Shown piece after piece: positions 47,165-63,800 of a DNA stretch of 64,000 nt. Both the position numbers and the translations under genes were made by a program. Source of the stretch: Escherichia coli (GTDB lineage: Bacteria; Pseudomonadota; Gammaproteobacteria; Enterobacterales; Enterobacteriaceae). The DNA is taken from NCBI GenBank assembly GCA_902500205.1, contig GCA_902500205.1_4868.1; one strand, written 5' to 3'. The first letter of the stretch is position 1. The number at the start of each line of letters is the position of its first letter. The notes under the pieces are model-generated. The model was not told the DNA's origin, did no database searches, and saw only the letters and a list, made by a program, of their open reading frames with translations.

Positions 47165-47170
47165 TTAAGC

Positions 47171-47238: not shown

Positions 47239-47261
47239 ACGACCCAAAAGGAATATAAAAA

Positions 47262-48382: not shown

Positions 48383-48399
48383 ACGAGCGAGAGTGTATA

Positions 48400-48876
48400 A
48401 TGATACGTGTTGCTTACGAAACACGAGATACGGATGGAACCCGTATAAACGTCATCCGCCGTGTGGAGCTTGTTCCTCAGCATGAATTGAATATTGCAGA
48501 CAGTTCGCTTAGGGGCACTCCTGTTAAGATTCTGAATCTTACGAGACGTTCTTTTCATCACAGTAAGACTTCACCAGCAATACGGTCCAGTAAAAGAAAA
48601 AGTTATGCCGATTTAAAACATCGGTTGTCCCGGCATTTTCGTCGGAGTGCCTGGAAGGCTTTAGTTGAGATTTTGGTTGACGAGCACCTTATCCAGAGGT
48701 TGGAGTGGGAAGAAGTTCTCAAGGAAGCGGGCTATCCAACAAAACCTTTCTCTTATCACTGGCATCACTTCAAAAAACAGTTCCATGATGCCTTACAGGT
48801 ATCGCCAAACACTCGCAACATGATTCACCGTTTGGAGAAAATGGACTGGCTTCTACCCTATCTGGAAGAGGACTAG
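48400..48876 (+). CDS. Hypothetical protein
   Basis: 158-aa ORF. Confidence 0.5.
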   Translation: MIRVAYETRDTDGTRINVIRRVELVPQHELNIADSSLRGTPVKILNLTRRSFHHSKTSPAIRSSKRKSYADLKHRLSRHFRRSAWKALVEILVDEHLIQRLEWEEVLKEAGYPTKPFSYHWHHFKKQFHDALQVSPNTRNMIHRLEKMDWLLPYLEED

Positions 48877-48878
48877 AT

Positions 48879-49268
48879 ATGATGCGTGCTGTATTAGCTG
48901 TGTTTATAATTTGCGTTACTACGTCAGTATACGCGTTTACTGTTCAGGACTTCCCGCAATACAAACCAATGTGGGAAACTGACGCACCTGTGAAATTCAG
49001 CGACAAAGATGAACCAGTCGTGACAGTGGAGAAGGGTGAGTTTGCCGTGGTCAACTACGGGCGTTCTGAACTGTGTCCGGGCGGTGGCTTTTATCTCGTT
49101 AACACAAAGCGCAAGACGTACCAGCCAATAGATGCCGGTACGTGTTCGTCGAAAGTTAAAGCGACAATTGCCCCGACAGTACGAAGACATCGCAGCGTTA
49201 ATACCCACCAGTTAACTTTTTGGGTAGGTAAAGAAATTTCCGCGCGGTATCCTTTGTACGATTATTAA
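48879..49268 (+). CDS. Secreted/periplasmic protein (N-terminal signal peptide)
   Basis: MMRAVLAVFIICVTTSVYAFTVQ. Confidence 0.5.
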   Translation: MMRAVLAVFIICVTTSVYAFTVQDFPQYKPMWETDAPVKFSDKDEPVVTVEKGEFAVVNYGRSELCPGGGFYLVNTKRKTYQPIDAGTCSSKVKATIAPTVRRHRSVNTHQLTFWVGKEISARYPLYDY

Positions 49269-49276
49269 ACACAGCG

Positions 49277-49314
49277 TATAGGGGCTTCGGCCCCTATACT
49301 GTTTATTATTTTCC
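49277..49314 (+). terminator. Rho-independent terminator
   Basis: Hairpin tatagggggc-TTCG-gcccctata (same core as terminator at 67) plus T-rich tail. Confidence 0.7.
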
Positions 49315-49359
49315 TGTGAAGTATTATGACCCCCCTTAATCAAATACCAGGAGCGAGGC

Positions 49360-49977
49360 ATGTCTTTTGTTATTGACTTTAACCACCATCATAGTCAAAC
49401 CTTGCTCGATTTAGTCAATGCTTTTAATGCTGAAACCGTTTATACGCCCCTGACCACAGAACGTATCCGAGTGGAGAGTTATGGTCCACCGGAACCGGAC
49501 GGTCGTGTAAGTGCTTTGCTGACTAATAAGAGTAAGCCTGATGACTATGTGGTTGTACGCTACCGCAAATTGAGCCTCAATGATATAATCACGTTGAAGC
49601 CTGAACATCTCACGTGGTTTGATTTGTCGAAAGGTAAACCGGCCGATTTGCGTGTATGGTCCGAAGCCGCGATGGCCAGTTTTGAATCAGCCTGTGCAGA
49701 ACGTGGTATCATCGTAAGTAAGGCGTGGGAAAACCCTGCGCAATGCCACGTAGAGTACGACATCCTGACCGATCGATACATCCTCGTCTATGAATGTGAA
49801 TCGTTTGTTTACGAATCACGCACACGTATTACGCTACCGTACCATATCGGCCAAGACTTAACCAAGACAACGCTGCCTGGTCTGGAATACGACTTGGCTG
49901 GTTTCTGGGGGCGTAAGCTGTTAGAAGAAGTGACTATCACGAAGCTTAACGGTTTTCGTTATCGTGTGTTTGTTTAA
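49360..49977 (+). CDS. Hypothetical protein
   Basis: AGGAG RBS; 205 aa. Confidence 0.55.
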   Translation: MSFVIDFNHHHSQTLLDLVNAFNAETVYTPLTTERIRVESYGPPEPDGRVSALLTNKSKPDDYVVVRYRKLSLNDIITLKPEHLTWFDLSKGKPADLRVWSEAAMASFESACAERGIIVSKAWENPAQCHVEYDILTDRYILVYECESFVYESRTRITLPYHIGQDLTKTTLPGLEYDLAGFWGRKLLEEVTITKLNGFRYRVFV

Positions 49978-49981
49978 GACA

Positions 49982-50023
49982 CTACCCTCGCCCGTTTAGC
50001 GAGGGTAGGTATTTATTTTTTTC
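49982..50023 (+). terminator. Rho-independent terminator
   Basis: Hairpin ctaccctcgc-ccgttta-gcgagggtag plus T-run. Confidence 0.75.
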
Positions 50024-50058
50024 TTACGAATCGTCCACTCCGTATAGGAGGTAAGTCC

Positions 50059-50658
50059 ATGAAAAAGATTTATAAAATTGCGGTAATCGGTTCTCGGAAG
50101 ACTGATGAAGATACCATGTCTGAAATGTACATGCGATTGTTACGTGGGTTTAATGCGCTGCACGCCAAAGATTACACGATTCATTTTTCCTCTGGCGGCT
50201 GCTGGTGTGGTCCAGACCAATTGCAATTCCGATTTGCCCGACAGTGGGCGAATACAATCGACCAAGATACCGGCAAGAAAGTGGTGTGGGATGATGAGTT
50301 CATTTGTTACCTACCCGATGAGAAAAAGCTCTGGCTCAGGAAACAGAATCCCAACGTAGAGTTCCGTGTAATCCCTCAGGATGACCGCTATCGTGAGATA
50401 GTAGGTAAGCTTCATCCCGCGCCAGAAAAGCTCCAGGAGTTCGCCTGGGCGCTTCACGGGCGTAATCTGAATATAATTATGGGCGATGATTTAGCAACGC
50501 CTGTAGACGCAGTCTATTACTCTGCGCCTTTAGATAAACAAGGTAATCCGACCGGCGGTACTGCAATGGGCGTGAAATACGCTAAGCAGTGTGGTATTCC
50601 TTGTTACCACCATGCGCTTGAAGGACATCTGTGGCTTGAGAGCTTGTGCTTATTATGA
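50059..50658 (+). CDS. Hypothetical protein, possibly Rossmann-like (DprA/LOG-type SLOG) nucleotide-binding fold
   Basis: AGGAGG RBS; N-terminus KIAVIGSRK...FSSGG. Confidence 0.3.
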   Translation: MKKIYKIAVIGSRKTDEDTMSEMYMRLLRGFNALHAKDYTIHFSSGGCWCGPDQLQFRFARQWANTIDQDTGKKVVWDDEFICYLPDEKKLWLRKQNPNVEFRVIPQDDRYREIVGKLHPAPEKLQEFAWALHGRNLNIIMGDDLATPVDAVYYSAPLDKQGNPTGGTAMGVKYAKQCGIPCYHHALEGHLWLESLCLL

Positions 50659-50688
50659 CCACGTTGCCTTTAATCAGAGGTCGCTATT

Positions 50689-50961
50689 ATGCAAACTACC
50701 AGTTTAGCTCGTCGTTTGTGGGAAGCGTTCTTCCCTACGCCGTCAAAACCCATTAAGAAGGTGACTAGCCTTCGCTTGTTCCCAGGCACTGAAGATGAGT
50801 TCTTCGATTACCTGGAACGTCACGGTTTTGATTCGAAAGTCGCACCACAAGAAAATGACCCAATTCAGACAGTTTACACCACGCCGGATACGGGAGAGAT
50901 ATTTGCCTTGTGTGTTCGATGGCCACATCGCAACTACTACTATACTTTGACGCAGATGTAA
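50689..50961 (+). CDS. Hypothetical protein
   Basis: AGAGG RBS; 90 aa. Confidence 0.45.
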   Translation: MQTTSLARRLWEAFFPTPSKPIKKVTSLRLFPGTEDEFFDYLERHGFDSKVAPQENDPIQTVYTTPDTGEIFALCVRWPHRNYYYTLTQM

Positions 50962-50971
50962 GGAGCAGGGG

Positions 50972-52105
50972 ATGTCGACGCTCGATTTAGATTTAGAAGT
51001 CCTGACTGACGACTACGATCGCCTGGTCGCACTCGAAGGTCTGGGAGTTAAGCCCGACTTCCCTGCGGTTTGCGCGATTCGTCAGCGTTGGTGCTTAACC
51101 GACGACGGTGAAGATATGTTGGTTGCTCGTGAATCGCGCGAAGCGATGGAGCGTGCTCAGTTTATGACTGATACTGACCCGCGGGCTGGCATCCATCGCG
51201 CAGCAGGGCGCATTACTGCGAAAGCTGTTAAAGGTACTGGAAAGTTAGTGGGAGCTGGACTAGGCGCAACCGCAAAGGGCGCGGGTAAACTTTCGAAAAA
51301 GCTCGCATTACGCTTTTACGATTTCGCGGAAGCGCTAGCGAAAGAACAAGCCGACCGTTTGAAAGAAATAACTTCGAAAGCCGCATTCATGGAACGTAAG
51401 CTCAATAAGCTCAAAGCACGAATGTCGTTATTGGATGACCACAAAACACTCGCTGCGGTCGACGTTCACACGAGTAGCTGGACGTCTAAAGTTTGCTTTG
51501 AAGATCGACCCGATTTTGAAGCGTGTGTTAAGTTTTCTAAACGAACAAATGCGTACGAAGGCGTCGTGCAAAAGTACACGGTTTACACACGCACCGCTCT
51601 GAAGAAAAGCAAAGCATTCGAAGGGCCAGGCTTAAAACAAATCAGCAAGTCCACGAACTGGGCAGTTAAGCGCGCTGCTGGGTTGCTTGGCATCATCGAT
51701 CCCTTTAAAAAGGTGGAAGCTTTTCCTGTCCCTGGAAATATCGTTGTGGTTGAGCACCATAGTGGTAAGGTCAGTTGGGCAATTGCGCGTGACGGTGAGT
51801 ATGGTGAAACCATTAAATCGCTGGATATGCATCAGTGTGGGAAAGCAATAGAGGCTGTGGAAGCACTTATCAAATCTATTGCAGCACGCGGAACAAAGAA
51901 CCGCGTTGTGGGTTACACCGGCATTTACGAAGAAGTGGAAGCGATGAAGTCCGAGCTTAAGAACCTGGAAGGGGATGAGCTGAAAGAAGCCACTTTGCGC
52001 TACCGCAATGCAATGGCAATGGAAGACGCATTCACCACGGCGTTGGTACGCGTGGCGGAGGGTCTAATGGAGTGGACGAAGCAATCGTTGGCTGAGGTGA
52101 AATGA
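50972..52105 (+). CDS. Hypothetical protein
   Basis: 377-aa ORF with GGAG RBS. Confidence 0.55.
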   Translation: MSTLDLDLEVLTDDYDRLVALEGLGVKPDFPAVCAIRQRWCLTDDGEDMLVARESREAMERAQFMTDTDPRAGIHRAAGRITAKAVKGTGKLVGAGLGATAKGAGKLSKKLALRFYDFAEALAKEQADRLKEITSKAAFMERKLNKLKARMSLLDDHKTLAAVDVHTSSWTSKVCFEDRPDFEACVKFSKRTNAYEGVVQKYTVYTRTALKKSKAFEGPGLKQISKSTNWAVKRAAGLLGIIDPFKKVEAFPVPGNIVVVEHHSGKVSWAIARDGEYGETIKSLDMHQCGKAIEAVEALIKSIAARGTKNRVVGYTGIYEEVEAMKSELKNLEGDELKEATLRYRNAMAMEDAFTTALVRVAEGLMEWTKQSLAEVK

Positions 52106-52569
52106 TGAAAATTGTTTTTGTCACCAAGCCCAACTCTCCGTATGGAAAGAAATACTACGCGGACTTGTTAGGACTACACAACAAGTTATACGACGATCAG
52201 AAAATAAAACTTGCCGACTTAAACGGTCGTGAAGGGTTTAATCAAATCTTAAAACTGGAGGAGGTTTGGGGTGAAGGTACGCTGTGCGCTTGCGCCGTTG
52301 ATGACCGTGGTGTGGCTGTTGGTTTCATCACCTTCGGCTACACCAAAAAGGGACAACGTTTCCTCTGGGTATATAACTTTTTTGTAGATGAATCGGTTCG
52401 TTCACAAGGCGTTGGCCATGAACTAATCGAAGCCGTAGAAAACTACGGCAAATCAAAAGGCTGCGCATGGATGCAGCTTAACGTGCTCGGTAATAATGAC
52501 CGTGCTATTGCGTTTTATGAACGTTTCGGTTTTCGAACTGAATACCAGGATATGGTAAAGGAGCTTTAA
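52102..52569 (+). CDS. GNAT-family N-acetyltransferase
   Basis: VRSQGVGHELIEAVENYGKSKGCAWMQLNV...AIAFYERFGF. Confidence 0.6.
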   Translation: MMKIVFVTKPNSPYGKKYYADLLGLHNKLYDDQKIKLADLNGREGFNQILKLEEVWGEGTLCACAVDDRGVAVGFITFGYTKKGQRFLWVYNFFVDESVRSQGVGHELIEAVENYGKSKGCAWMQLNVLGNNDRAIAFYERFGFRTEYQDMVKEL

Positions 52570-52570
52570 C

Positions 52571-53179
52571 ATGGTGGCTGTCCGCAGCGTGCCACATCAG
52601 ACTGGCTCGCGATATACTTTTTGTGTAAAGCGTTTTGGGGCAAGAAATCGCCCTGGTTGGAAGGTGGTACGTGCGATGGGACAGTTCTGGCAAATACCAC
52701 CCGGCACGTTAAAATATTTTTCAGTAGACAGAATAATCCGGTTCTTAAACGCGGCTGACCCAAGTCAACGCTCCAGTTTTATGGCAGGGATTGTTTGTCG
52801 TCCCGATGGGAAAACACGCGATGCAACCACTCGTGGAATCTACTGGACAGGACAGAATGCGTTTCAGGTTGGCTTACCTTGCCTGAAGTGTGAAGTGACA
52901 CCGTTTAATGGTCCCTACGCCGATGCGCACTTCACCGGTATCTTTGTGTCGTTCCCAGACGACCCGTCTTTAAACTACTTTTTATCAGTGGACAAAGACG
53001 TCAGTATTGATACCTTTTACAAATACTTGTTGTTTTACAGCCGGTATATCCGCGTGACTCCTGTGCATGAAGATTGGTATTATAAAAATCCCTTGAACTA
53101 TGGGAGGGACAGGAGACTAGAAGGATGTTCTATCGAGAGCTTCAACTCTGTACCGCAGCGCTCCATGGCGCTAATGTGA
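52571..53179 (+). CDS. Hypothetical protein
   Basis: 202-aa ORF. Confidence 0.5.
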   Translation: MVAVRSVPHQTGSRYTFCVKRFGARNRPGWKVVRAMGQFWQIPPGTLKYFSVDRIIRFLNAADPSQRSSFMAGIVCRPDGKTRDATTRGIYWTGQNAFQVGLPCLKCEVTPFNGPYADAHFTGIFVSFPDDPSLNYFLSVDKDVSIDTFYKYLLFYSRYIRVTPVHEDWYYKNPLNYGRDRRLEGCSIESFNSVPQRSMALM

Positions 53180-53496
53180 GCAAGAACGGGGACCTGGAAG
53201 ACGTCGCGCAAGCCTTACGGGTTGTGCCGGAGGTTGACCAGGTCGACATCGACGCTAAGTATTTAGGCGACGGCGTAAAGCGTATTCAGTTGACCGTGCG
53301 AGCCAAACATGGCAGCTGCTCGTTACATTTCCGAGTCAGTGCGGATTATTTCCTGGTACTGCGCTCCACATTCAGTCACGATGGTCGGACTCACCGGGTT
53401 CGGTGGATGCACGACATTACTAAATTTGGCTACCCGCTTGCAGAACAACGTAAAGTCGTCCATGACTTTATGGCTGCAGTCGTTGCGGGGTTTTAA
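53125..53496 (+). CDS. Hypothetical protein (55-nt out-of-frame overlap with previous gene)
   Basis: ATG 53125 preceded by GAAGG RBS. Confidence 0.4.
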   Translation: MFYRELQLCTAALHGANVSKNGDLEDVAQALRVVPEVDQVDIDAKYLGDGVKRIQLTVRAKHGSCSLHFRVSADYFLVLRSTFSHDGRTHRVRWMHDITKFGYPLAEQRKVVHDFMAAVVAGF

Positions 53497-53508
53497 GGGG
53501 AAACTGTG

Positions 53509-54105
53509 ATGTCTGAGATGATTCTCGATTCGCTGTTTTTGATTACGGTTGCAAACATCAATAAAAACGGCAATCTTCCAGAATACGTAGACATAAGTCG
53601 TCATGGCTTTAAGCGTCGCTATCAAATCGGTAAGGTGTTAGAAATTGCCTGTTTAGTAACGAACATGCGTAGACCGGTGGAAGGCTGTAGCGTTAAACAT
53701 GCACAGATGATACTCGGACGTGCTATTTCAGAAGTACGTCGTAAGCGTCGTCGTGCACCGTATCGCTTTTATCCTAACTCTACCAAACAGGTGGTGGGCG
53801 AGGGTGAAGGTGTGGTTGATTTGCGCGAGGCCAGTTGTAATGTAGGCGGTATTGCACGTGACTGGTTAATGAGCATTATCAGTAAGCATCCACGTACACC
53901 TACGCCGCAAGAAGGACAGGCGGTACTCGCACTTATGCGTAAGACCCATTTGGTGATTACTGATACACCAAACCAGGCAGCACGAATGCAGCACTATTTG
54001 GCATGTCGTGGCTTCACCACACTTGCAGTACCTTCTGAATACACAGCTGATATTAAACTTCCGCCAGTCCCAGAGTGGTCTGAACCGACAGTTGATCATC
54101 AGTGA
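53509..54105 (+). CDS. Hypothetical protein
   Basis: AAGGGGA RBS; track start GTG 53506. Confidence 0.5.
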   Translation: MSEMILDSLFLITVANINKNGNLPEYVDISRHGFKRRYQIGKVLEIACLVTNMRRPVEGCSVKHAQMILGRAISEVRRKRRRAPYRFYPNSTKQVVGEGEGVVDLREASCNVGGIARDWLMSIISKHPRTPTPQEGQAVLALMRKTHLVITDTPNQAARMQHYLACRGFTTLAVPSEYTADIKLPPVPEWSEPTVDHQ

Positions 54106-54110
54106 GTTAT

Positions 54111-54149
54111 ACCCACTCCTTCGGGAGTGGGTCGACTCTATTCTTTTTT
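54111..54149 (+). terminator. Rho-independent terminator
   Basis: Hairpin acccactcc-TTCG-ggagtgggt plus T-run. Confidence 0.75.
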
Positions 54150-54172
54150 GGATAGATGTTATCTTAGGGAGA
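54150..54172 (+). promoter_or_regulatory. Phage promoter-like element, class 2
   Basis: GGATAGATGTTATCTTAGGGAGA immediately after terminator. Confidence 0.5.
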
Positions 54173-54266
54173 CGTGCAAAAATTACGTTTCATCCTTAGC
54201 ATATGCTAGAAGCCGTTGTGAGTCGGTTAAAACTCACCAACTTAAACTTAAAAGCGAGTAAACAAA

Positions 54267-55031
54267 ATGTCAAAACTCAATAAAGCAGCAACCAAAGAAT
54301 GGCTTTCCGTACCTACCGCAGATGGTCAGTATCGCTACGTATTCACGTATGACGAAAATGACCTGACGGCAAAAGGTATTCCGCACATGTTAAGTCACAA
54401 ACTGATTAACAGCGTGACCGGTGCCACCTTAGTAGGTTCCGGCGGAAGGACAATCTTTTGTGCCCCCAGTTGGGATCAAACTGAACTGACCAAGAAAATG
54501 CTCGGTGAACTCCGGGCGGTTTCCGCACGTCTGTTCTTTAAGCTGATTGCCAGAAAACCGGCGCTATGGGATGCATGGTCTCAACACAATCTCGAGGCAT
54601 TGCGTGGGGAGTGTCTGAATTACGTATTGGTCGAAGAAGTGATTGATAACTTCTTCGCTAACGTGATGAAAACCGAACGACTGCGTAAGCCGAACACCGA
54701 CGGTTATTCGTTTGTCTCCGTTAAGAGCAGCGAACTGATTCGGGGTGAGTTTGCAGGGCATGTCCTTTCGGTAACTCGGAACCTGAGTTTCTTTGGCCAG
54801 CCTTTCAGTGAGCCAGTTGTTCAGGTAACTTATGATTTCCGTTTACCGTTTACTGTTCGGAATGAGTTTGACCCAGGTCAAGTTTCGTTGAAGTTTTTAT
54901 ATCCTCTCCAGTCATGGCCGTTATTGAAGAGGTTCTTAGCTGAGCCCCGTGTAGCTGCGGTGCTGCAAGCGTGGATTGATTCATGGCCAGAAGGCATTGA
55001 GGAAAAATCGAAAACGCGAGTTGACTTCTAA
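54267..55031 (+). CDS. Hypothetical protein
   Basis: 254-aa ORF. Confidence 0.55.
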   Translation: MSKLNKAATKEWLSVPTADGQYRYVFTYDENDLTAKGIPHMLSHKLINSVTGATLVGSGGRTIFCAPSWDQTELTKKMLGELRAVSARLFFKLIARKPALWDAWSQHNLEALRGECLNYVLVEEVIDNFFANVMKTERLRKPNTDGYSFVSVKSSELIRGEFAGHVLSVTRNLSFFGQPFSEPVVQVTYDFRLPFTVRNEFDPGQVSLKFLYPLQSWPLLKRFLAEPRVAAVLQAWIDSWPEGIEEKSKTRVDF

Positions 55032-55037
55032 GTAAGC

Positions 55038-55073
55038 TAGGCACTCTTCGGAGTGCCTATTATTTTTTTTTTC
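55038..55073 (+). terminator. Rho-independent terminator
   Basis: Hairpin taggcactc-TTCG-gagtgccta plus T-run. Confidence 0.75.
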
Positions 55074-55103
55074 TTTACGTATGCTCGCTATATTGTGACA
55101 CCA
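55074..55103 (+). promoter_or_regulatory. Promoter-like element, class 3 (TTTACG-N14-TTGTGACA)
   Basis: tttacgtatgctcgctatattgtgacacca; near-identical architecture at 57408. Confidence 0.4.
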
Positions 55104-55136
55104 CTACAATTAATTAAACTTTTGGGGAAGAATAAA

Positions 55137-55760
55137 ATGTTAAACTCAGTGGCGCTGGATGGTCCAGATTTTTCTGGCAAATCAACACTCGCGAAAATGA
55201 TTCAAGCGATGTTGCGCTCCGCTGGCGTTAATGTCATCATCGTCAATCACCCGACGAATACCACTGAAGCCGGTATTAGTGCACGCTCTCTGGTTATCCA
55301 GCACGCTTCTAACGAACGCATTGCTAAAGCGATGTGTCTGGATTTCCAATACACGATGGATTTCGTTGTACCAGAGCACGATGTCGTTATTTTTGACCGT
55401 TTTTGTCAATCGACTATTGTCTACCAGGGCGTCGATGGTAAAGGGGAAGTTTTCCGTTCGCGGGTATTAGACCACATTAACGCACCAAAGCTTTACGTGG
55501 CAACCGATGTATCTTACGAAACCGCCACAGAACGCTTTAAGAAGCGCGTAGAGGCCCAGGGCAAGAACTGGGATGATGAGGTACTGACAGCGAAGTATCT
55601 GCGCTCACAGACTGATTGGGACGCGTTACGCGACCACTACCGTTTTGCTTTCCACATCACCACAGATGGCGGCGATAAGTTCCCGCTGATGCGTGTTACG
55701 GCTGACGACGATATAGCGTTACAAGCCGCGCGTATCGTTGAACGTATTCTGGCAGGTTAG
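55137..55760 (+). CDS. tmk: Thymidylate (dNMP) kinase
   Basis: P-loop LDGPDFSGKSTLAKM at N-terminus; track ORF 55053 (GTG inside terminator) trimmed to ATG 55137. Confidence 0.6.
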   Translation: MLNSVALDGPDFSGKSTLAKMIQAMLRSAGVNVIIVNHPTNTTEAGISARSLVIQHASNERIAKAMCLDFQYTMDFVVPEHDVVIFDRFCQSTIVYQGVDGKGEVFRSRVLDHINAPKLYVATDVSYETATERFKKRVEAQGKNWDDEVLTAKYLRSQTDWDALRDHYRFAFHITTDGGDKFPLMRVTADDDIALQAARIVERILAG

Positions 55761-55766
55761 TTGTAC

Positions 55767-55803
55767 CCCTCTTACCTTCGGGTAAGAGGGTATTGTCTTT
55801 TTT
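55767..55803 (+). terminator. Rho-independent terminator
   Basis: Hairpin ccctcttacc-TTCG-ggtaagaggg (same stem as 28966) plus T-run. Confidence 0.75.
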
Positions 55804-55846
55804 ACAGATCGTAACAGTCTTATGCTTTTTGCTTCCAGTCCACTAA

Positions 55847-55872
55847 ATTTCAGATATATATTACTTAGGTGA
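55847..55872 (+). promoter_or_regulatory. Phage promoter-like element, class 1
   Basis: ATTTCAGATATATATTACTTAGGTGA; downstream leader AATCGACTATTAATCTAAAGGAGTATT shared with 27078 copy. Confidence 0.55.
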
Positions 55873-55922
55873 GAGTTACTACTAAACTCTCTAATCGACT
55901 ATTAATCTAAAGGAGTATTCTA

Positions 55923-56288
55923 ATGCGTTTTAAACATCAAACCGTTGTGTTGGCAAAGAAAGCATTTCTGGTTCGTCTCTCTTACATTATTACTCGTGTC
56001 ACTGCGAAGGATGTTACGCAGAAAGACATTGCATTGTTGGTAGGCTGCTCACCGTCACAAATCTCTGCGATTAAAAATGAACGCGAGAAAGCCGTGACTA
56101 TCGAAACTCTGATGCGTGTTGCCGATACACTGCGCCTGAATTACGAAATCGTTTACCGTTCCATTAACGGCAAATGCCGCCATAGCTTCAAAATTGAATC
56201 CTGCACCGACTACATGAATAACTGTCCTATCCGGGTACGAGAAACAGGACTTAAAGTCATGGCACGTAAACCTTCTGCAGTGATGTAG
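55923..56288 (+). CDS. XRE-family helix-turn-helix transcriptional regulator
   Basis: HTH signature TQKDIALLVGCSPSQISAIKNER; first gene after promoter-like element. Confidence 0.5.
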   Translation: MRFKHQTVVLAKKAFLVRLSYIITRVTAKDVTQKDIALLVGCSPSQISAIKNEREKAVTIETLMRVADTLRLNYEIVYRSINGKCRHSFKIESCTDYMNNCPIRVRETGLKVMARKPSAVM

Positions 56289-56299
56289 GGAGCAAACGT

Positions 56300-56686
56300 A
56301 TGAATTGGTTTGTAAATGGTATCACCCGTCGCGTGATGACGGAAGAGGATGATCGATGTAAACATCTTAAAGTGGGCTCTATAGCCCCGCGCTATACGGC
56401 AGAGTGCGACCCATGGGGCCGCGAAACGTACTACATGTGCGAGAACTGCTGGGAAAAGCTGCAGGCTGAAATTGCAGCTGAAGAAGTGGTCTGCGACGAT
56501 TGCAAAGGTACCTTCCCGAAACGAGATACCGTTGAATGGAAATGGTACGACTTTGACCCCAGTCAAGGGGATAAAGAACTTTGTATCTGTAATAACTGCG
56601 TGTCTTTACCGACACATTTAAACCGTGTAGAGAATGACCGTCGGGCATTTGAACACGACTTTCCAGAAGCAGCTTTCTGGGATTAA
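56300..56686 (+). CDS. Cys-rich zinc-ribbon protein
   Basis: CKHLK...CENCWEK...CDDCKG...CICNNC. Confidence 0.45.
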   Translation: MNWFVNGITRRVMTEEDDRCKHLKVGSIAPRYTAECDPWGRETYYMCENCWEKLQAEIAAEEVVCDDCKGTFPKRDTVEWKWYDFDPSQGDKELCICNNCVSLPTHLNRVENDRRAFEHDFPEAAFWD

Positions 56687-56712
56687 CTAGTGTAAACCTT
56701 AAGGAGTATACC

Positions 56713-57369
56713 ATGGCGAAGGCCCCTAAAACTGTAGCAAAAGATTCAATGGCAAGCAGCGCGGTTAAATCCACAAAAACGCGCACCACTGAATCCACGC
56801 GTACATCTAGCATTCCTAAACCGGATGTAATTGTACCGATCAGCGAGCGTCTGAAAACAATTCACATCGAGCGCGAATATCCGATTGACCTTGGTCAGGA
56901 AATCGTTGCGGTTAACCTTGGTAGCGACGTACGCTTTACCATCTATAAAGGCGCGCATCTGAACAACATGGTGCTAACCCGTGGCGATGAAGTTATCGGT
57001 CTGTCTCGTTACGACACGCAAATCGAAAACATCTATCCGGTGTTTGCAGTAGCGATGTTGCGTTTGTTTATGCAGGATAAAGCCGACCTTTGTGGTCAGC
57101 TTGCGGGTATGGCGGATCGTGTTGGTCATATTCTGCCGACGCTGGTGAAACTGTACCCAGTTACGATTGACGTGGCGTTTACTACGGTAGACAACAACCA
57201 CGGTTATATCGTACTGACCAAAGACGGTAAAGTTATCGCTGGTAATCTGACTGATAACGAAGTGCAGAAGCATATGGACAAATTTGCGTTCATGGTGAAT
57301 CGCTTGGCGCACGTCAGTGTCAAACATTCCGAAACTTGGACGACGCTTGTCTCCAAACCGGAACTGTAA
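56713..57369 (+). CDS. Hypothetical protein
   Basis: RBS CTTAAGGAGTAT; 218 aa. Confidence 0.55.
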   Translation: MAKAPKTVAKDSMASSAVKSTKTRTTESTRTSSIPKPDVIVPISERLKTIHIEREYPIDLGQEIVAVNLGSDVRFTIYKGAHLNNMVLTRGDEVIGLSRYDTQIENIYPVFAVAMLRLFMQDKADLCGQLAGMADRVGHILPTLVKLYPVTIDVAFTTVDNNHGYIVLTKDGKVIAGNLTDNEVQKHMDKFAFMVNRLAHVSVKHSETWTTLVSKPEL

Positions 57370-57371
57370 TC

Positions 57372-57407
57372 ATTAAGGGGTCTTCGGACCCCTTAATTTT
57401 TTGTCTT
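57372..57407 (+). terminator. Rho-independent terminator
   Basis: Hairpin attaaggggtc-TTCG-gaccccttaat plus T-run. Confidence 0.75.
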
Positions 57408-57437
57408 TTTACGCATTATCCTCATGTTGTGACAGCA
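57408..57437 (+). promoter_or_regulatory. Promoter-like element, class 3
   Basis: tttacgcattatcctcatgttgtgacagca. Confidence 0.4.
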
Positions 57438-57458
57438 ATACCTTTTGAGGGCATTACA

Positions 57459-58457
57459 ATGAAAACTGTGGCTAAATTGTTCCGCAGCAGCATTCGCTCT
57501 GCCGAGTTCCAAAATAACGTCGGTAGCGATACTGTACGAGCACGCCGCCTAAAAGAGTTTCTAAAGGACGAGACTTATTCTGTTTACGTGGTGAAGAATA
57601 AAGAAACCTGGGAGGGTTATTTAGTGGCCACCTATCGACACGGTGACCCTACACTAACCTGTCACTATTTTGAGGAGTTTGTACCTGGGGCGTTCGATAA
57701 AGTTGGTTTGGCCCTTGTGCTCGACCATACCGGATTCGAATATATGTCGTGTCCAGCACCTACTGACGATGTTGAACAAAAACTGGTCGAAAAAGGGTTT
57801 GTTCTTTCAGATATCGTTTGGGCATGTCATTCTAAACTGTTTGACAAAGTAATCACCGCATCGGAAATCAAGATTATTTCTGGTGATGCATACGCAGAAC
57901 TTACCAAGGAAGATAAAGACGTTATCCTGAATTTGATTAGCGGTGCAATTTGCGAAGAGCTAGAATACGATATGCGTGGCTACTATACGCACATTGGCCC
58001 GTTAGCAGAAACAGTAATAGCAAGAATTCAGCACGCTAATGTGGAGACTGCAATTTGGCGAGACGGCCATGATATCGTCGGTATTGCCCAGATGCGCTTG
58101 GTTACACCAGGCGTCGTTGAACTTTCTGGTTTAACCGTTGCACCAACACACCGTAAACGTGGCATTGGCCGCCGGCTAATGGGCGCGCTATTCGATTTCG
58201 CACAACGTCATTCCGACCAAGTCTATATTGAAACAGCTGCTGATAATAATCCAGCAAATCACCTGTACGGCAACATCTTACGTTGCAAGCAGGTACTGCG
58301 TACACTAACGTTGAAACGCGATCCTGAACTTATTAGCTGGAAACGGGTGAATGGGAACCGCGCCGATCGAGTGCTGAAAGAAGAACCTAGCATTCCGGTG
58401 GAGACTACAACCAGGCTGACTATCAGTGATATGTTTCAATCTGGCATGAGAGGATGA
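57459..58457 (+). CDS. Two-domain protein with C-terminal GNAT acetyltransferase domain
   Basis: LTVAPTHRKRGIGRRLMGALFDFA...NNPANHLYGN; track ORF 57336 begins inside the terminator, trimmed to ATG 57459. Confidence 0.5.
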   Translation: MKTVAKLFRSSIRSAEFQNNVGSDTVRARRLKEFLKDETYSVYVVKNKETWEGYLVATYRHGDPTLTCHYFEEFVPGAFDKVGLALVLDHTGFEYMSCPAPTDDVEQKLVEKGFVLSDIVWACHSKLFDKVITASEIKIISGDAYAELTKEDKDVILNLISGAICEELEYDMRGYYTHIGPLAETVIARIQHANVETAIWRDGHDIVGIAQMRLVTPGVVELSGLTVAPTHRKRGIGRRLMGALFDFAQRHSDQVYIETAADNNPANHLYGNILRCKQVLRTLTLKRDPELISWKRVNGNRADRVLKEEPSIPVETTTRLTISDMFQSGMRG

Positions 58458-58463
58458 TATCGG

Positions 58464-59282
58464 GTGATAAGACCAATTTTAAAATGGATGGGTGGTAAGA
58501 GTCGCGTACTGCCCGAGTTGCTACAGGTGCTTCCAGATGCTGAGTATTTCGTTGAACCGTTTGTGGGTGCAGGGTCAGTGTTTTTAAACACTAAATACCC
58601 GAACTATATTCTCGGCGACACGAACCCAGACTTAATCGAGTTACTGACCATGGCGCGCGATCGTCCGGAAGCGCTGATTCTGGAAGCAAAGGCGCTCTTT
58701 GCAAATGGGCTGGACCGCGGTCTGTACATGAAACGGCGTGAGGAATTTAACAGCGAGACAACCACGGGGAAACCTAATCTCCAGCGCGCTGCGATGTTCC
58801 TGTATCTTACACGTCATGGTTACAACGGCTTGTGCAGATACAATCAGTCAGGTGGATTTAATGTCCCGTATGGTCAACATCCGAACGGTGCCTATTTCCC
58901 TGAAGAGGAAATTCTGGCGTGGGCAAAACGTTGTTCGGAAACCAACGTCGAGCTGCTCTGCGCCGACTTCCGCGACATCCTAAATAAGTGCCCATCTAAC
59001 GCAGTGATATACGCTGACCCGCCATACATCCCACTTTCGGATACGGCTAAACATGCGCAGTATCACAGCAAAGAATTTTCACAAGCTGACCACCGCGAGT
59101 TAGCGAAACTTTTAAAACAACAAGCTGCCGATGGCAATAAGGTCGTTCTGTCAAACGCAGATACGTTACTCACACGCGATATTTATTACGGCTTTACTTG
59201 GCGCGAAGTTCAGGTAGGTCGATATATGTCTGCGGATGCGAATAAGCGTAAAGCGGTGACGGAGCTAATCGGCACCTTATAA
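58464..59282 (+). CDS. dam: DNA adenine (N6) methyltransferase, Dam family
   Basis: ILKWMGGKSRVLPEL, FVEPFVGAGSVFLNT, catalytic ADPPYIPLS; GTG start with GAGAGGA RBS. Confidence 0.85.
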   Translation: MIRPILKWMGGKSRVLPELLQVLPDAEYFVEPFVGAGSVFLNTKYPNYILGDTNPDLIELLTMARDRPEALILEAKALFANGLDRGLYMKRREEFNSETTTGKPNLQRAAMFLYLTRHGYNGLCRYNQSGGFNVPYGQHPNGAYFPEEEILAWAKRCSETNVELLCADFRDILNKCPSNAVIYADPPYIPLSDTAKHAQYHSKEFSQADHRELAKLLKQQAADGNKVVLSNADTLLTRDIYYGFTWREVQVGRYMSADANKRKAVTELIGTL

Positions 59283-59291
59283 GGTACCAAC

Positions 59292-60095
59292 ATGCAACTA
59301 TTTAATCTATACGGTATGGACAAAAACGACCTGACCGTAGAGTTTAGTGGTCGGTTGACCACCTTGGGGCAACTCCGCGAACGGATTCAAGATTTGCGAC
59401 CCGTCGCAGACCAAGAAGACGATCATTGGTTAGTGTTGAGCAATAGCGGTCGTGCGCAAATGTATTTTCGTGGATGTCGTTCAGGTATTGTTTACTACAT
59501 CTACGAGCTGCACGTGCTCTCCGAGCCCCTGTTCCACGAGTGGAAGCGTTTAACGCGACTCCTGGAAGTGCAGATGCTCGATATTACCTGCTTTCCGCAT
59601 GACACTGAGCACGCAGCACTATACCAGCGCCTGGGGTTCGAAGCTGTAACGAAGCGTGTGGAGATTACTGTCAGTCCGAAATACGGTTTTACGTCAGACC
59701 CATCGGTTGTCCCGTTGGAGACATTGTCATTAGAACAAACCCAGGATGTTTGCTATCTAATGCGACCTACGCTAAAAGACGCAGGTACGCGTGAGATGTT
59801 GGGTGAATTAGCAAATGGTTTTGTCTCTGCGTTCGTGGGGTTGCACGGCCAGAAACCGTTTTCATTAATGCTTTATAAGGAATTCCCGAAGAGCATCATT
59901 ACTGAGCAATTCTGCTGCCAAACTTTTGACCCGGTTGCTTACTCGGTAGAGTTTCTAAAACACTACCACGCTATTTTGCATTTGGCGGGACAGAAAGGTA
60001 AGAAGGTCAACATGGGTGTTGCGATAGAGCACGAGTTTCCTTCTATCGAAGGGTTAGAGTATCGTGTAATCACGCATCACTACACCCTTGCGTAA
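59292..60095 (+). CDS. Hypothetical protein
   Basis: 267-aa ORF. Confidence 0.5.
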   Translation: MQLFNLYGMDKNDLTVEFSGRLTTLGQLRERIQDLRPVADQEDDHWLVLSNSGRAQMYFRGCRSGIVYYIYELHVLSEPLFHEWKRLTRLLEVQMLDITCFPHDTEHAALYQRLGFEAVTKRVEITVSPKYGFTSDPSVVPLETLSLEQTQDVCYLMRPTLKDAGTREMLGELANGFVSAFVGLHGQKPFSLMLYKEFPKSIITEQFCCQTFDPVAYSVEFLKHYHAILHLAGQKGKKVNMGVAIEHEFPSIEGLEYRVITHHYTLA

Positions 60096-60104
60096 GGAGA
60101 GAAT

Positions 60105-60917
60105 ATGCTGAGAGTTATCGAACGCACGGAGAGGATTCTGGACCGAACGTGGTTGGAAGACCGTAAAGCGTTATCGTTGTTAAACGATATCGATCCTTCC
60201 ACGTTACAAGATGAACGTCGTCTTTACTACCGAATCTTTGAAGTTTTCAGTCGGGACACAGTTGCGCCCGACGCGATCGTGCTCTGTCTGGACCACGGAT
60301 ACATGTTAGAAGTTATCAATATGGTTCGTGCTTTAGACGCCCAGTTAACCTCGCTTGCGGATGCTTTACTCCGCTCAGCGGGGTGTAACTACGCGATGCA
60401 TTTTACTCGTTCTGAAGGGGACGAATATGCTCGCATGGGCTTTTGTTGCGAAACGATAAACTACCGCAAAATTAATACATTGGTGCCTAGCCACGATGAG
60501 GATTTCTGTGGGGATGTCAGTTCGTTGTTCGATAGTAAGAAAGCGTTCTTGGATTGGGTTAGAATGCTTTACGGTAAAAGCTCTATCTACTCAACGCTCG
60601 TTACGGGCGGGAGGATGATGTCGTGGCGGAACAGCGATAGTTACAAACTGACAGTGCTCACACATCGTGGACAACGCTGGGTTATTGGTGGATGGTTTAC
60701 CGCAGAAGGGGTGGTTACTCTAAGCCGAGAGGAGTTCGGGCTGTTGATGCACTGTATCCAGTCTGAATTACCGGTGGGGGATGAACTGATTTACACCTAC
60801 CACCAATATACTGGGGGGCCTGCCGCAATGTGGTTATTAGAAAACGGTTGGCTGCCTGAAAGTTATGTGTACGGACGTACTCTGAAAACTAGTAATGGAG
60901 AAGATAATGCAAATTAA
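60105..60917 (+). CDS. Hypothetical protein
   Basis: 270-aa ORF with AAGGAGAG RBS. Confidence 0.5.
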   Translation: MLRVIERTERILDRTWLEDRKALSLLNDIDPSTLQDERRLYYRIFEVFSRDTVAPDAIVLCLDHGYMLEVINMVRALDAQLTSLADALLRSAGCNYAMHFTRSEGDEYARMGFCCETINYRKINTLVPSHDEDFCGDVSSLFDSKKAFLDWVRMLYGKSSIYSTLVTGGRMMSWRNSDSYKLTVLTHRGQRWVIGGWFTAEGVVTLSREEFGLLMHCIQSELPVGDELIYTYHQYTGGPAAMWLLENGWLPESYVYGRTLKTSNGEDNAN

Positions 60918-61185
60918 TCGTACAGTGTCGAAGTCTAAAGAAGTCGTTTACAACGTTGAAGACGGTGATGTAATGCAGTTTCGTGCCGTCATTGACGAAC
61001 AGCACGTACTCCAAGTCGTTTATTCGAAAGAAGAAATGACTCGCGCACATAGCCGCGTGTTAGAAAAACTCGTTGCGAAAGCCAAACAGCGCGACGGTAT
61101 TAAATCCTACAACGTCATGTACGGTTATCAGTTACGTGAGGTGGAAGGGGAGCTGTTAATCACCCCTGTTCCGGTAACGGCGTAA
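60895..61185 (+). CDS. Hypothetical protein
   Basis: Overlaps previous gene; alternative start ATG 60907. Confidence 0.45.
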   Translation: MEKIMQINRTVSKSKEVVYNVEDGDVMQFRAVIDEQHVLQVVYSKEEMTRAHSRVLEKLVAKAKQRDGIKSYNVMYGYQLREVEGELLITPVPVTA

Positions 61186-61225
61186 TTCGCCATTGTATGA
61201 CCCTTAAATACCGTTGAGGTTAACT

Positions 61226-61708
61226 ATGGATATGATCGAATTAGGTCAGCTCCCTCAGCACGATTTTGATTTAGGCGTGCGTCATGAGGAAGGGGCCGAC
61301 GCGAACACACTTATGGCCCGCTACTACGAGCTACTGACCGGTCAACCGTTGGACGATGAGCATATCAACCGTTTTGAAAAACTGTTGGCACAACTCATCA
61401 CCTCTAACGCAGAACGCATTGGCATGTTGAACGAAATGAACTTTGCCGATGTAGAGCCATCAGACGCTCAGAAGATTCTTATCGATGGTCCTGTGCCAAG
61501 CGATGAAGTACAAGACCTTCTGGCAGGTATCCGTGCAGGCTTCGATGAAGCTGCTGAGAAATACGCGGAAGAGCTGGCAGATGTCGATTTGGCTGCGCCG
61601 GTTGACCCGAATCCGTCTGCAGAGGAGACTGCAGCTGCGAAATTGAAACTCGCACGCTTTATCTGTGCTGCTGTCTTGACAGACGACCGTGAAGAAAACC
61701 AACTGTAA
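61226..61708 (+). CDS. Hypothetical acidic protein
   Basis: Track ORF (TTG 61214) trimmed to ATG 61226 after GAGGT. Confidence 0.5.
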   Translation: MDMIELGQLPQHDFDLGVRHEEGADANTLMARYYELLTGQPLDDEHINRFEKLLAQLITSNAERIGMLNEMNFADVEPSDAQKILIDGPVPSDEVQDLLAGIRAGFDEAAEKYAEELADVDLAAPVDPNPSAEETAAAKLKLARFICAAVLTDDREENQL

Positions 61709-61750
61709 GGCCCGCCTCCTTGCCCACGGGTGAGGAGGTCCCTTTTTATT
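61709..61750 (+). terminator. Rho-independent terminator
   Basis: GC-rich hairpin ...cctcct...aggagg... plus T-run. Confidence 0.6.
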
Positions 61751-61804
61751 TACATCAGTCCACTAACTTATGTGAAACAACCCACGTAATGAGGAATTAA
61801 GAGA

Positions 61805-62122
61805 ATGTGGTTAAGTGCTATTCATCGTGACCTGCCAAAACGTGAAGTGACCCTTTCTGTCGATGCGGAACCGATTACCGTTGGTGTCGCTAACTTCGAC
61901 CGTATGGAGGAAGGGCAGTATGTCGTGGTGGACAACGATGAAAACGAATTCATGTTATTCCATCCCGAAGTTGATGCGTCTGAAATCCGCGAGGGTTCTA
62001 TCTTGTTTTCTTGGCAAGACAAAGAAACTAAACAGTGGATGTGGTGCGTTGCTAACACAACCGATGAAAAAGGTACCGCGTATGCCCCAGGACAGCTTCA
62101 TGTCGAACCTAAACCCCATTGA
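61805..62122 (+). CDS. Hypothetical protein
   Basis: 105-aa ORF. Confidence 0.5.
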   Translation: MWLSAIHRDLPKREVTLSVDAEPITVGVANFDRMEEGQYVVVDNDENEFMLFHPEVDASEIREGSILFSWQDKETKQWMWCVANTTDEKGTAYAPGQLHVEPKPH

Positions 62123-62414
62123 GCCCACGCTGACGCACCAGGAACTGCACGTCCGTTTTATTCGGGCGTTCACACCCCCGTTAGGTGGTGAGGTACACGA
62201 TCGTTCCGTGGTTGCAGAAGTTAAAGGTATCGGCGAAGAACTAATGACACTGTCTAATATTGTGACGGGTGTTGAGTTCACGTTACCGTTAAACGTATTT
62301 CGGTTTATTCCGCGCGTAAACGAAACACTGCTCATCGACCGTGTGCATCATCGGATTATGGCGCAGGTACATCCTAGACGTAAAGAGTATGTGCGCTTAG
62401 AGATGATGGTTTAA
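62100..62414 (+). CDS. Hypothetical protein
   Basis: In-frame ATG of track ORF 61863; overlaps previous gene by 23 nt. Confidence 0.4.
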   Translation: MSNLNPIEPTLTHQELHVRFIRAFTPPLGGEVHDRSVVAEVKGIGEELMTLSNIVTGVEFTLPLNVFRFIPRVNETLLIDRVHHRIMAQVHPRRKEYVRLEMMV

Positions 62415-62426
62415 CGCACGACTTTT

Positions 62427-62450
62427 CAGATAGATGTTATTTTACTGAAC
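62427..62450 (+). promoter_or_regulatory. Phage promoter-like element, class 2 variant
   Basis: CAGATAGATGTTATTTTACTGAAC. Confidence 0.4.
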
Positions 62451-62476
62451 CTAACTGTAAAGAAAGGAAAAAGTAG

Positions 62477-62782
62477 ATGGCTAAACAATACACAATTGTT
62501 AAACGCGCAGGTACAACTCTGCTGTACGTGGAGAAAGGTTGTGAGAACACTACAACCGCCAAGAAACTGAACCTGCAAGGGTTTCTGTATCAAGGTCTCC
62601 GTGCGGGTTTGACCATCACTTTTAAAGGCTTACCACAGGCGAAGAATCTGCGCGTCGTACGTGCAGACGGTGTAGAGCGTGCCTTGGTAGCCGACACCCC
62701 GGTTGATACTATCCCTGCCAGTAAGAAGGCAGCGAAAGCAACCAAGAAAGTCGTCGATAAACGCAAACGCGCTGTCGCTTAA
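62477..62782 (+). CDS. Small basic protein, possible DNA-binding
   Basis: Lys/Arg-rich C-terminus SKKAAKATKKVVDKRKRAVA. Confidence 0.45.
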   Translation: MAKQYTIVKRAGTTLLYVEKGCENTTTAKKLNLQGFLYQGLRAGLTITFKGLPQAKNLRVVRADGVERALVADTPVDTIPASKKAAKATKKVVDKRKRAVA

Positions 62783-62788
62783 GTAGTC

Positions 62789-62828
62789 CCCTACCTAACT
62801 TCGGTTAGGTAGGGCTCTTTTTATTTTT
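62789..62828 (+). terminator. Rho-independent terminator
   Basis: Hairpin ccctacctaac-TTCG-gttaggtaggg plus T-run. Confidence 0.75.
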
Positions 62829-62848
62829 AACCCTCTGGGGGATATACC

Positions 62849-63301
62849 ATGTTTCAATGTTCAGTCGTCAATGATGCGGAATTGGCCGTGTACAAGCAGC
62901 GCACAATCCGGGCGCTGGATGCTGAAAAACCAGTCGATGTTAAAACGCGTGCAATCATTAGGGCGTTTAGCGAATGGCCGAATATCGCAACCGTTTGGGC
63001 ATTCACGGGAGAAGTTCGCAAAGACGGAGACAAGCTTCGTACACGTAGACACCACAGCTTAACATTTGTGGCAACCGAGGCGGGTCTTAAAGACATTAAT
63101 CATTTATTAGAAGGATGGCAGCCGCACGAATACGGGAAACGTTTTCAGTTAAACTTTACTTGGCTGCGTCAAGAAGGCAACGCGAATCTCTGTTATCCAA
63201 GCTGGACGTTTAGACTCAACTATCGACCTGACCCAGATGTGATGGAAAGAGTGATGGAGCACTGGCTCGCACTCGCAATTTTTACAGAACATAACCATTA
63301 A
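62849..63301 (+). CDS. Hypothetical protein
   Basis: 150-aa ORF. Confidence 0.5.
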   Translation: MFQCSVVNDAELAVYKQRTIRALDAEKPVDVKTRAIIRAFSEWPNIATVWAFTGEVRKDGDKLRTRRHHSLTFVATEAGLKDINHLLEGWQPHEYGKRFQLNFTWLRQEGNANLCYPSWTFRLNYRPDPDVMERVMEHWLALAIFTEHNH

Positions 63302-63329
63302 ATGAAGACACCCTTAAGGAGAATTAAAG

Positions 63330-63800
63330 ATGCCAGTTTTATACGGTGGCGTGGATCTGAAAGTTTTGGATCGGTTTAAACTACGGGCATCCGAAGCGCT
63401 CGTAAACGGTTGGGTTGAGCGTGGGGTACGGGATGCGTGTGAAGTTATTTGCCGTTACCCCGGCGCGACGACAATGTGGTCATGTCATGGACACGGACCA
63501 TATTCTAAAAAGAACACGCCAGGGGAGTTCCATGTAGTGTTTGTTCTTGGTGTCGGCTTTGAGCACAAAGCGCATGAGCTAGTTGCTGAGTTAATGAAAG
63601 CGGATATTCCACCATTGTGGGATTTATCCATGACGAGACTCATGTACCCTGATGATGATTTCGTTTATGACCTCAGCGAAATCACCCTGAAAAACACGTA
63701 TAACGCGTGGAAGATAACGTATCGTTATCTGCACACCGAACAATCCCTTCGTGAAATTCGTAAAGTATTCCACACAGTTTGCAAAAAGGTTTTTAACTAA
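63330..63800 (+). CDS. Hypothetical protein
   Basis: RBS CTTAAGGAGAATT; 156 aa. Confidence 0.55.
   Translation: MPVLYGGVDLKVLDRFKLRASEALVNGWVERGVRDACEVICRYPGATTMWSCHGHGPYSKKNTPGEFHVVFVLGVGFEHKAHELVAELMKADIPPLWDLSMTRLMYPDDDFVYDLSEITLKNTYNAWKITYRYLHTEQSLREIRKVFHTVCKKVFN

Follow-up and report, generated by a model that had tools for sequence, protein, structure and literature searches.

Two flagged sites in a jumbo phage window

The 64,000-nucleotide window analysed here (contig GCA_902500205.1_4868.1 of the Escherichia coli assembly GCA_902500205.1; "the window" denotes this whole stretch) contains two similar copies of a short element that begins with TTTACG, one upstream of a thymidylate kinase gene (PF02223) and the other upstream of a GNAT acetyltransferase gene that is followed by a D12 Dam methylase gene. 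The window comes from an SPN3US-like jumbo phage (Seoulvirus): over a 4.5-kb stretch around both copies, identity is 97% to Proteus phage 7 (MT679221) and 95-97% to SPN3US and numerous Salmonella and E. coli relatives, each of which is a Seoulvirus jumbo phage. For SPN3US-like phages, the literature examined contained no account of promoters or start sites. The two copies and the hairpins in front of them are as follows.

55074-55097, + strand: site 1, TTTACG-N14-TGTG; predicted +1 at G 55097, 40 nt 5' of the thymidylate kinase ATG (55137)
57408-57431, + strand: site 2, TTTACG-N14-TGTG; predicted +1 at G 57431, 28 nt 5' of the GNAT acetyltransferase ATG (57459)
55038-55059, + strand: intrinsic-terminator hairpin with a UUCG loop and a T-run, ending the upstream gene; -19.7 kcal/mol, z = -3.3
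57372-57397, + strand: intrinsic-terminator hairpin with a UUCG loop and a T-run, directly before site 2; -20.4 kcal/mol, z = -3.2

With stems of 9-11 bp, both hairpins correspond to the definition of a G+C-rich stem-loop plus T-run and are predicted terminators, and the T-run of the first forms the A/T-rich flank of site 1. TTTACG occupies 55074-55079 and 57408-57413, and TTGTGACA occupies 55093-55100 and 57427-57434. The first-pass annotation had located both copies correctly, each in or directly after a terminator T-run, and its estimate of about 20 matching positions in 30 is close to the 22 of 30 counted between the two 30-mers. Its description of the 3' half requires revision, as the gap before TTGTGACA, given as 14 nt, is 13 nt, and the proposed conserved block TTGTGACA(C/G)CA is over-specified, with TGTG alone being general. 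It is because of these two errors that a literal search for TTTACG-N14-TTGTGACA with up to three mismatches returned 8 matches in the window against 7.5 expected, which is no enrichment.

Two related candidates were rejected. As an independent word, TTGTGACA has only two exact copies in the window, and its one-mismatch variants are under-represented (38 against 69 expected); the Proteus phage 7 genome holds four copies, three of which stand behind a [T/A]TTACG box. The block TTGTGACA(C/G)CA owes its appearance to the chance resemblance of two members, though an A often follows TGTG. A CRP-like TGTGA half-site is absent from the other members.

A two-block element with a fixed spacer

The conserved signal is (A/T-rich)-[T/A]TTAC[G/A]-N14-T[A/G]TG. 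Genome-wide motif tests were carried out on the complete genome of Proteus phage 7 (242,444 bp) as a close relative of the window, and site placement was judged against its annotation. When all intergenic copies of TTTACG in this genome are listed, most are followed 14 nt on by TATG or TGTG. The pattern TTTACG-Nx-TRTG gives 15+1 matches at x = 14, where 1.2 are expected, and 0-2 at each of the remaining spacings between 8 and 21, while the broader TTAC[GA]-Nx-T[AG]TG gives 27 matches on the + strand and 6 on the - strand at x = 14 and a total of 3-7 at other values of x within 11-17. In the window, TTAC[G/A]-N14-T[A/G]TG occurs 11 times on the + strand and never on the - strand, with 0-2 matches at other spacings from 8 to 20; the chance level in 200 first-order Markov simulations has a mean of 2.3, a standard deviation of 1.5 and a maximum of 7. 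Six loci of divergent relatives, 121 kb in total, contribute 23 + strand matches at N14 compared with 0-8 at other spacings from 6 to 23. The redefined element is far beyond chance.

TTAC, and A or G at position -2, are fixed by the search pattern, and the unconstrained columns alone are informative on conservation. Among the 33 exact Proteus phage 7 sites, the column before TTAC is T in 22, the column after it is G in 25 and A in 8, and the four positions before the box are mildly A/T-rich; the 14-nt spacer and the bases after TRTG carry at most 0.35 bit per column. Information outside the fixed positions is confined to the box and initiator region, where 21 of these sites have TATG and 12 have TGTG. 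Non-coding DNA holds 23 of the 33 matches, all oriented toward the next gene or a tRNA cluster, and the other 10 are intragenic, where about 5 would be expected by chance. The two-part signal thus recurs before about 25-30 genes of this SPN3US-like phage. Downstream genes elsewhere in the genome include an exonuclease/RNase H gene, an SbcC-like gene, a tRNA cluster and some virion-gene operons.

The element is retained among relatives while the spacer drifts. Footprinting covered SPN3US, SPAsTU (71% DNA identity), the Erwinia phages Asesino and phiEaH2 (~65%) and two uncultured (metagenomic) relatives (~65% protein identity). Upstream of the tmk orthologs of all these phages, the box, the 14-nt distance and TGTG are kept between unrelated spacers, with TCTACG and TATACG boxes being tolerated in the Erwinia phages. 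The GNAT gene and the orthologs of the genes at 47262, 54267 and 61805 have the same upstream pattern, in which the box, N14 and TRTG are preserved and spacers diverge. At the SPAsTU GNAT gene, for example, the site reads TTTACA-N14-TGTG; its spacer has diverged and the 5' leader is conserved. The site at 54182 corresponds to TTTACG-N14-TATG in Asesino and phiEaH2. Orthologous sites also exist for 47210 (SPAsTU, Asesino and phiEaH2), 55801 (SPAsTU) and 61749 (SPAsTU, Asesino, phiEaH2 and the divergent loci L013, L015 and L016). At the variant near 50023, the box is degenerate in relatives and N14 to TATA/TATG is kept.

Nine strong sites, including the two given above, and two variants are catalogued in the window, with coordinates running from the start of the box to the G of TRTG. 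In the strong sites the predicted-start G lies 28-99 nt 5' of an ATG that has a Shine-Dalgarno sequence. The remaining members are:

47210-47233, + strand: full member ATTACG-N14-TGTG, behind a terminator, 29 nt 5' of the ATG at 47262
55801-55824, + strand: full member TTTACA-N14-TATG, behind a terminator, 99 nt 5' of a helix-turn-helix (HTH) regulator gene (55923)
61749-61772, + strand: full member TTTACA-N14-TATG, behind a terminator, 33 nt 5' of the ATG at 61805
54182-54205, + strand: full member ATTACG-N14-TATG, with no terminator, 62 nt before the ATG at 54267
34259-34282, + strand: full member TTTACG-N14-TATG, 5' of the operon 34359-37153, whose last gene encodes a phiKZ gp123 homolog
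26012-26035, + strand: full member TTTACA-N14-TATG, 32 nt 5' of the ATG at 26067 and overlapping the 3' end of the gene before it
18742-18765, + strand: full member ATTACG-N14-TATG, directly after a stop codon, 33 nt before the ATG at 18798
21292-21315, + strand: probable variant TTTGCG-N14-TATG, intergenic, 21 nt before the ATG at 21336; its Proteus phage 7 equivalent (60842) scores 16.6 bits with a position weight matrix (PWM)
50023-50046, + strand: weak variant CTTACG-N14-TATA, behind a terminator, 13 nt 5' of the ATG at 50059; its Proteus phage 7 equivalent (90180) has a PWM score of 12.2

Two of these had been listed by the first-pass annotation as weaker TTACG-containing copies behind terminators; the one it placed at 47211 proves to be a full member, stronger than claimed, and the one near 50021 is the CTTACG variant. 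Fusion to a terminator T-run, which it had put in the name of the element, is frequent but not defining: it holds for only five of the nine strong window sites (47210, 55074, 55801, 57408 and 61749), the remaining four having no terminator, and for about 7 of the 23 non-coding Proteus phage 7 sites. Since terminators precede only some copies, the terminator link is operon punctuation and not part of the element, with the T-run simply providing the A/T-rich 5' flank. Folding against shuffled sequences found that neither the motif region nor the predicted leaders are structured and that only the terminators fold, and Rfam gave no family match anywhere in the window.

The gene array from 44 to 64 kb is punctuated, about once per one to three genes, by long G+C-rich hairpins with a T-run and mostly a UUCG-type tetraloop.

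47171-47194, 49276-49299, 49982-50008, 55038-55059, 55767-55790, 57372-57397, 61714-61739 and 62789-62814, all + strand: hairpins of the 44-64 kb array

Several further observations concern matches in other settings. Exact copies of TTTACG-N14-TRTG lie within coding DNA of the window at 25637-25660 (+ strand), a copy that is shared with Proteus phage 7 and runs in the sense direction close to the 3' end of a tail-protein gene, and at 11306-11329 (+ strand), antisense to a baseplate gene; these could be chance matches or internal and antisense starts. The left end of the Proteus phage 7 genome (158-1045 and 3204-3272) has five TTAC-box sites in about 3.3 kb of largely unannotated DNA, two of them about 400 nt 5' of a tRNA-Asp/tRNA-Ile pair, and unannotated small genes or non-coding RNAs may be present there. 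The 11-mer CAGTCCACTAA, common to two sites, was rejected as a further motif, with exact copies only at 55836-55846 and 61756-61766 (+ strand) and no enrichment when mismatches are allowed; both copies adjoin TTAC-box sites in different registers, one 3' of TATG and the other inside the spacer.

Phage RNA polymerase homologs and an early-type motif

The window and Proteus phage 7 encode homologs of subunits of the phiKZ non-virion RNA polymerase (nvRNAP). The subunit relevant to the initiator lies in the window itself.

35375-37153, + strand: homolog of phiKZ gp123, the beta-like N-terminal nvRNAP subunit; E = 3e-20 to the PHIKZ123 chains 7ogp/8que/9rjs

This open reading frame, annotated only as hypothetical in Proteus phage 7, follows the major capsid gene, as in phiKZ. 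By analogy with phiKZ, where the gp123 lobe binds the TATG initiator, the homolog is the candidate reader of TRTG. Of the 13 gp123 residues reported to contact TATG, only five align to identical residues (Phe151, Asn186, Ser330, His331 and Ser402), a partial retention. A gp55 homolog is also present (E = 7e-33), and further RNA polymerase (RNAP) subunits are annotated in Proteus phage 7. The homolog of gp68, the sigma-like nvRNAP subunit, is very divergent (E = 2e-6) and corresponds to a hypothetical protein encoded at 25648-27282 of Proteus phage 7, outside the window, within a gene order (SbcD, gp66-70, RNAP beta subunits) that is syntenic with phiKZ. Its divergence is compatible with a different upstream specificity.

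A second AT-rich motif, AGATAKATDTTAY, with the consensus AGATA(T/G)AT(A/G/T)TTA(C/T), is found only on the + strand: Proteus phage 7 has 15 copies, and the window holds six exact ones plus a single variant.

17915-17927, 27035-27047, 34107-34119, 34305-34317, 55852-55864 and 62428-62440, + strand: exact copies of the early-type motif AGATAKATDTTAY
54150-54162, + strand: variant copy of the same motif

Copies stand upstream of the genes for the gp68, beta and gp123 homologs, that is, of nvRNAP subunits. The motif fits the predicted early promoter class of the virion RNAP (vRNAP) and is probably what the first-pass annotation had termed class 1. Its presence in front of the nvRNAP genes marks the TTAC class as separate from the early one.

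At three places (34259-34317, 54150-54205 and 55801-55864) TTAC-box sites and early-type motifs are arranged in tandem before the same gene, 20-50 nt apart and in either order: the copy at 55852-55864 lies between the 55801 site and the HTH gene, that at 34305 is just 3' of the 34259 site, and the variant at 54150-54162 is 20 nt 5' of the 54182 site. By analogy, this arrangement suggests that some genes are driven by two promoter classes, as are the continuously expressed genes of AR9.

A candidate middle promoter class

The late and middle promoters of phiKZ-type phages provide the frame for interpreting the element. Late phiKZ promoters consist of T(-3)ATG(+1) only, with G as the start and every base required in vitro (PMC4666361), and a cryo-EM structure from 2026 shows the four non-template-strand bases of the initiator bound by the beta-like gp123, and contacts between the sigma-like gp68 and the backbone of the duplex at -17 to -24 (PMC12809450). 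Middle promoters of phiKZ and 201phi2-1 carry 5'-AAanTTACc-3' centred near -24 (Ceyssens 2014, cited in PMC4666361; PMC11512511; PMC10914365), and two of those of phiKZ, P62M and P78M, also have a correctly placed TATG (PMC4666361); in 201phi2-1, middle promoters drive a tRNA and some structural genes. ONT-cappable-seq has mapped 33 middle start sites in phiKZ and 13 in 201phi2-1 (PMC10914365; PMC11512511). Read from the genome, P78M is AAAATTACC-N14-TATG, i.e. TTAC plus 1 nt, N14 and TATG, a layout identical to that of the element described here, and P33M reads AAAAGTACT-N14-CATG.

The resemblance to the phiKZ/201phi2-1 middle class extends to the TTAC core, the A/T-rich 5' flank, the P78M distance to TATG, the possession of two multisubunit RNAPs and a set of downstream genes that includes tRNA, DNA-metabolism and some virion genes. 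In contrast, the box here ends in G or A where theirs ends in C, and it is almost always coupled to T[A/G]TG at fixed spacing, whereas only two tested phiKZ middle promoters have TATG and 100 kb of phiKZ shows no N14 peak. The element resembles phiKZ late promoters in the form of its four-base initiator, and the window encodes a gp123 homolog; it differs in its strong box at a fixed N14, since phiKZ late promoters lack a conserved upstream element, and in having A or G at -2, whereas all TATG bases are needed in phiKZ and TGTG would be a down-mutation for its nvRNAP.

More distant systems offer looser parallels. T4 middle promoters combine a MotA box at -30 with a sigma-70 -10 element and depend on the appropriation of host RNAP by MotA/AsiA. 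The likeness is one of concept, comprising a short upstream box at a fixed distance, a temporal class and possibly an extra phage factor, but T4 uses the host sigma-70 holoenzyme, another box sequence and a -10 element that is absent here. In AR9, the late promoters of the nvRNAP are 5'-AACA-N6-TA/G(+1), and gp226 reads template-strand uracil (PMC7598289). They are likewise jumbo-phage nvRNAP promoters made of short blocks near the start, although they differ in sequence, geometry and uracil dependence, and AR9-type phages have no middle class.

What is present in these genomes is a bipartite, rigidly spaced, gene-oriented and evolutionarily maintained DNA element in a phage that encodes an nvRNAP. 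It probably represents a phage-RNAP promoter class of the SPN3US-like (Seoulvirus/Erskinevirus) nucleus-forming jumbo phages, equivalent to the middle class of chimalliviruses; the start at G, the nvRNAP as the enzyme and the "middle" timing are all assigned by analogy. Under this reading, the promoter would consist of the upstream box [T/A]TTAC[G/A] with its A/T-rich 5' flank and the initiator T[A/G]TG exactly 14 bp further on, and RNA would start at the final G of TRTG, as in phiKZ. With this G as +1, the box would fall at about -23 to -18, inside the phiKZ gp68 footprint. One rigid complex would read both blocks together: the beta-lobe of the nvRNAP, formed by the gp123 homolog, would read TRTG after strand opening, and the box would be read on duplex DNA by the diverged gp68 homolog or an additional phage factor. 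The element would then let transcription begin anew at small operons, in many cases immediately downstream of an intrinsic terminator, and the TTAC class would be expressed after the early class. A more specific proposal, put forward tentatively, is that the "middle" class may be a true bipartite nvRNAP promoter, in which a duplex -20 box, recognized by the gp68 homolog or one dedicated factor, is rigidly coupled to a TRTG read by the beta-lobe.

Several points weigh against the promoter reading. In vitro, the purified nvRNAP of phiKZ fails to use the middle promoters of this phage, including those that bear TATG (PMC4666361), and 12 of the 33 initiators here are TGTG, whereas phiKZ needs each TATG position. 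His185, Asn398 and Tyr399 of phiKZ gp123 are not among the identically aligned TATG-contact residues, only 5 of 13 being kept. The 100 kb of phiKZ without an N14 peak in the spacing test yielded only P78M as a clean fit, and P62M could not be placed in the P78M register. The PWM scan was trained on the genome that it scanned, making it circular for the training sites while adding candidate variants, and no mapped transcript 5' ends or expression timing were found in the literature examined for any SPN3US-like phage.

One alternative is RNA processing. For the 5' ends of phiKZ middle transcripts, two options have been raised, a factor assisting the nvRNAP or RNA processing (PMC10612078), and the motif could by extension mark where an endoribonuclease of the host or the phage cuts early or read-through transcripts, the 5' ends then not arising from initiation. 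Its sites do lie between genes of long co-directional arrays in which read-through RNA is possible. Nevertheless, two short blocks held rigidly 14 nt apart by a spacer of free sequence, with no predicted structure, are not what such a signal would lead one to expect, and strong terminators directly in front of several sites would remove most of the substrate. The 34259 and 55801 sites lie upstream of the adjacent early-type motif and hence outside that early transcript, and the 3' block is the nvRNAP initiator in the geometry of P78M. Processing is thus considered improbable. The related suggestion of the first-pass annotation, an anti-termination or processing site, finds no backing in RNA structure or Rfam matches, and the element lies downstream and not upstream of terminators, with two sites 5' of an adjacent early-type motif; its other suggestion, a distinct promoter class, gains support from the genome-wide occurrence of the element, its rigid spacing, its orientation with the genes, its position 28-99 nt before start codons and its retention across genera while the spacer drifts. 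Three observations favour initiation: the coupling of the box to an initiator of the nvRNAP type, the position of sites immediately after strong terminators, and the location of two sites 5' of the adjacent early-type motif.

Other DNA-based explanations assign the element to a different reader. It might be a second-class (delayed-early) promoter of the vRNAP, or a promoter of a modified vRNAP, which is one of the scenarios of Yakunina et al. for phiKZ middle transcription (PMC4666361); many sites do alternate with early-type motifs in a long + strand array of small, functionally uncharacterized genes. The sequence is, however, unlike the early-type motif, TRTG matches the nvRNAP signature, and the vRNAP of phiKZ is kept out of the phage nucleus, the compartment in which middle transcription is argued to take place (PMC10612078), so that this assignment is judged unlikely. 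A further candidate is an operator of a phage regulator acting on read-through or a nearby promoter, for example of the Cro/C1-type HTH protein (HTH_3; 55923-56288) that is encoded between the flagged sites and conserved in relatives, and the box is indeed short, like an operator half-site. This seems a slim prospect, given that the element is not palindromic, that its fixed distance to TRTG and constant orientation toward genes suit a polymerase better than a dimeric HTH protein, and that most sites have no other accompanying promoter-like motif. The two rigid blocks, free spacer and constant gene orientation fit a single DNA-bound protein complex better than either an RNA signal or a dimeric operator. 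A host sigma-70 promoter with TTTACG as its -35 hexamer, which agrees with TTGACA at 4 of 6 positions, is rejected as very improbable. No -35/-10 pair 16-18 bp apart is found at the element, there being no -10 element, less than 0.35 bit in the columns 3' of TRTG, and GACACC or GACAGC as the hexamer 17 bp downstream; a promoter scan of 44001-64000 reported neither flagged site and gave 19 promoter-like matches compared with 25 in shuffles, and phiKZ-type phages transcribe independently of host RNAP (PMC10612078).

The promoter class proposed here is best filed as the Seoulvirus/Erskinevirus version of the chimallivirus middle promoter, in which box and initiator are coupled unusually cleanly; the result is useful and testable but incremental, and not a new type of system. 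In phiKZ-type phages, it is debated who reads middle promoters and whether their transcripts arise by initiation or processing (PMC10612078), as well as how a 4-bp TATG specifies a promoter (PMC12809450). A sharp TTAC box at one distance from a TATG-like initiator argues for initiation by a TATG-reading nvRNAP with an added upstream contact, and the approximately 25-30 predicted start sites are directly testable. If the bipartite reading is true, chimallivirus middle transcripts would arise by initiation and not by RNA processing, the box would provide the specificity determinant missing from the 4-bp TATG promoter, and Salmonella/SPN3US would offer a tractable system for finding the reader of middle promoters. 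In addition, the motif may be used for predicting operons and timing and for promoter design in SPN3US-like phages, which serve as a genetic model and are considered for biocontrol.

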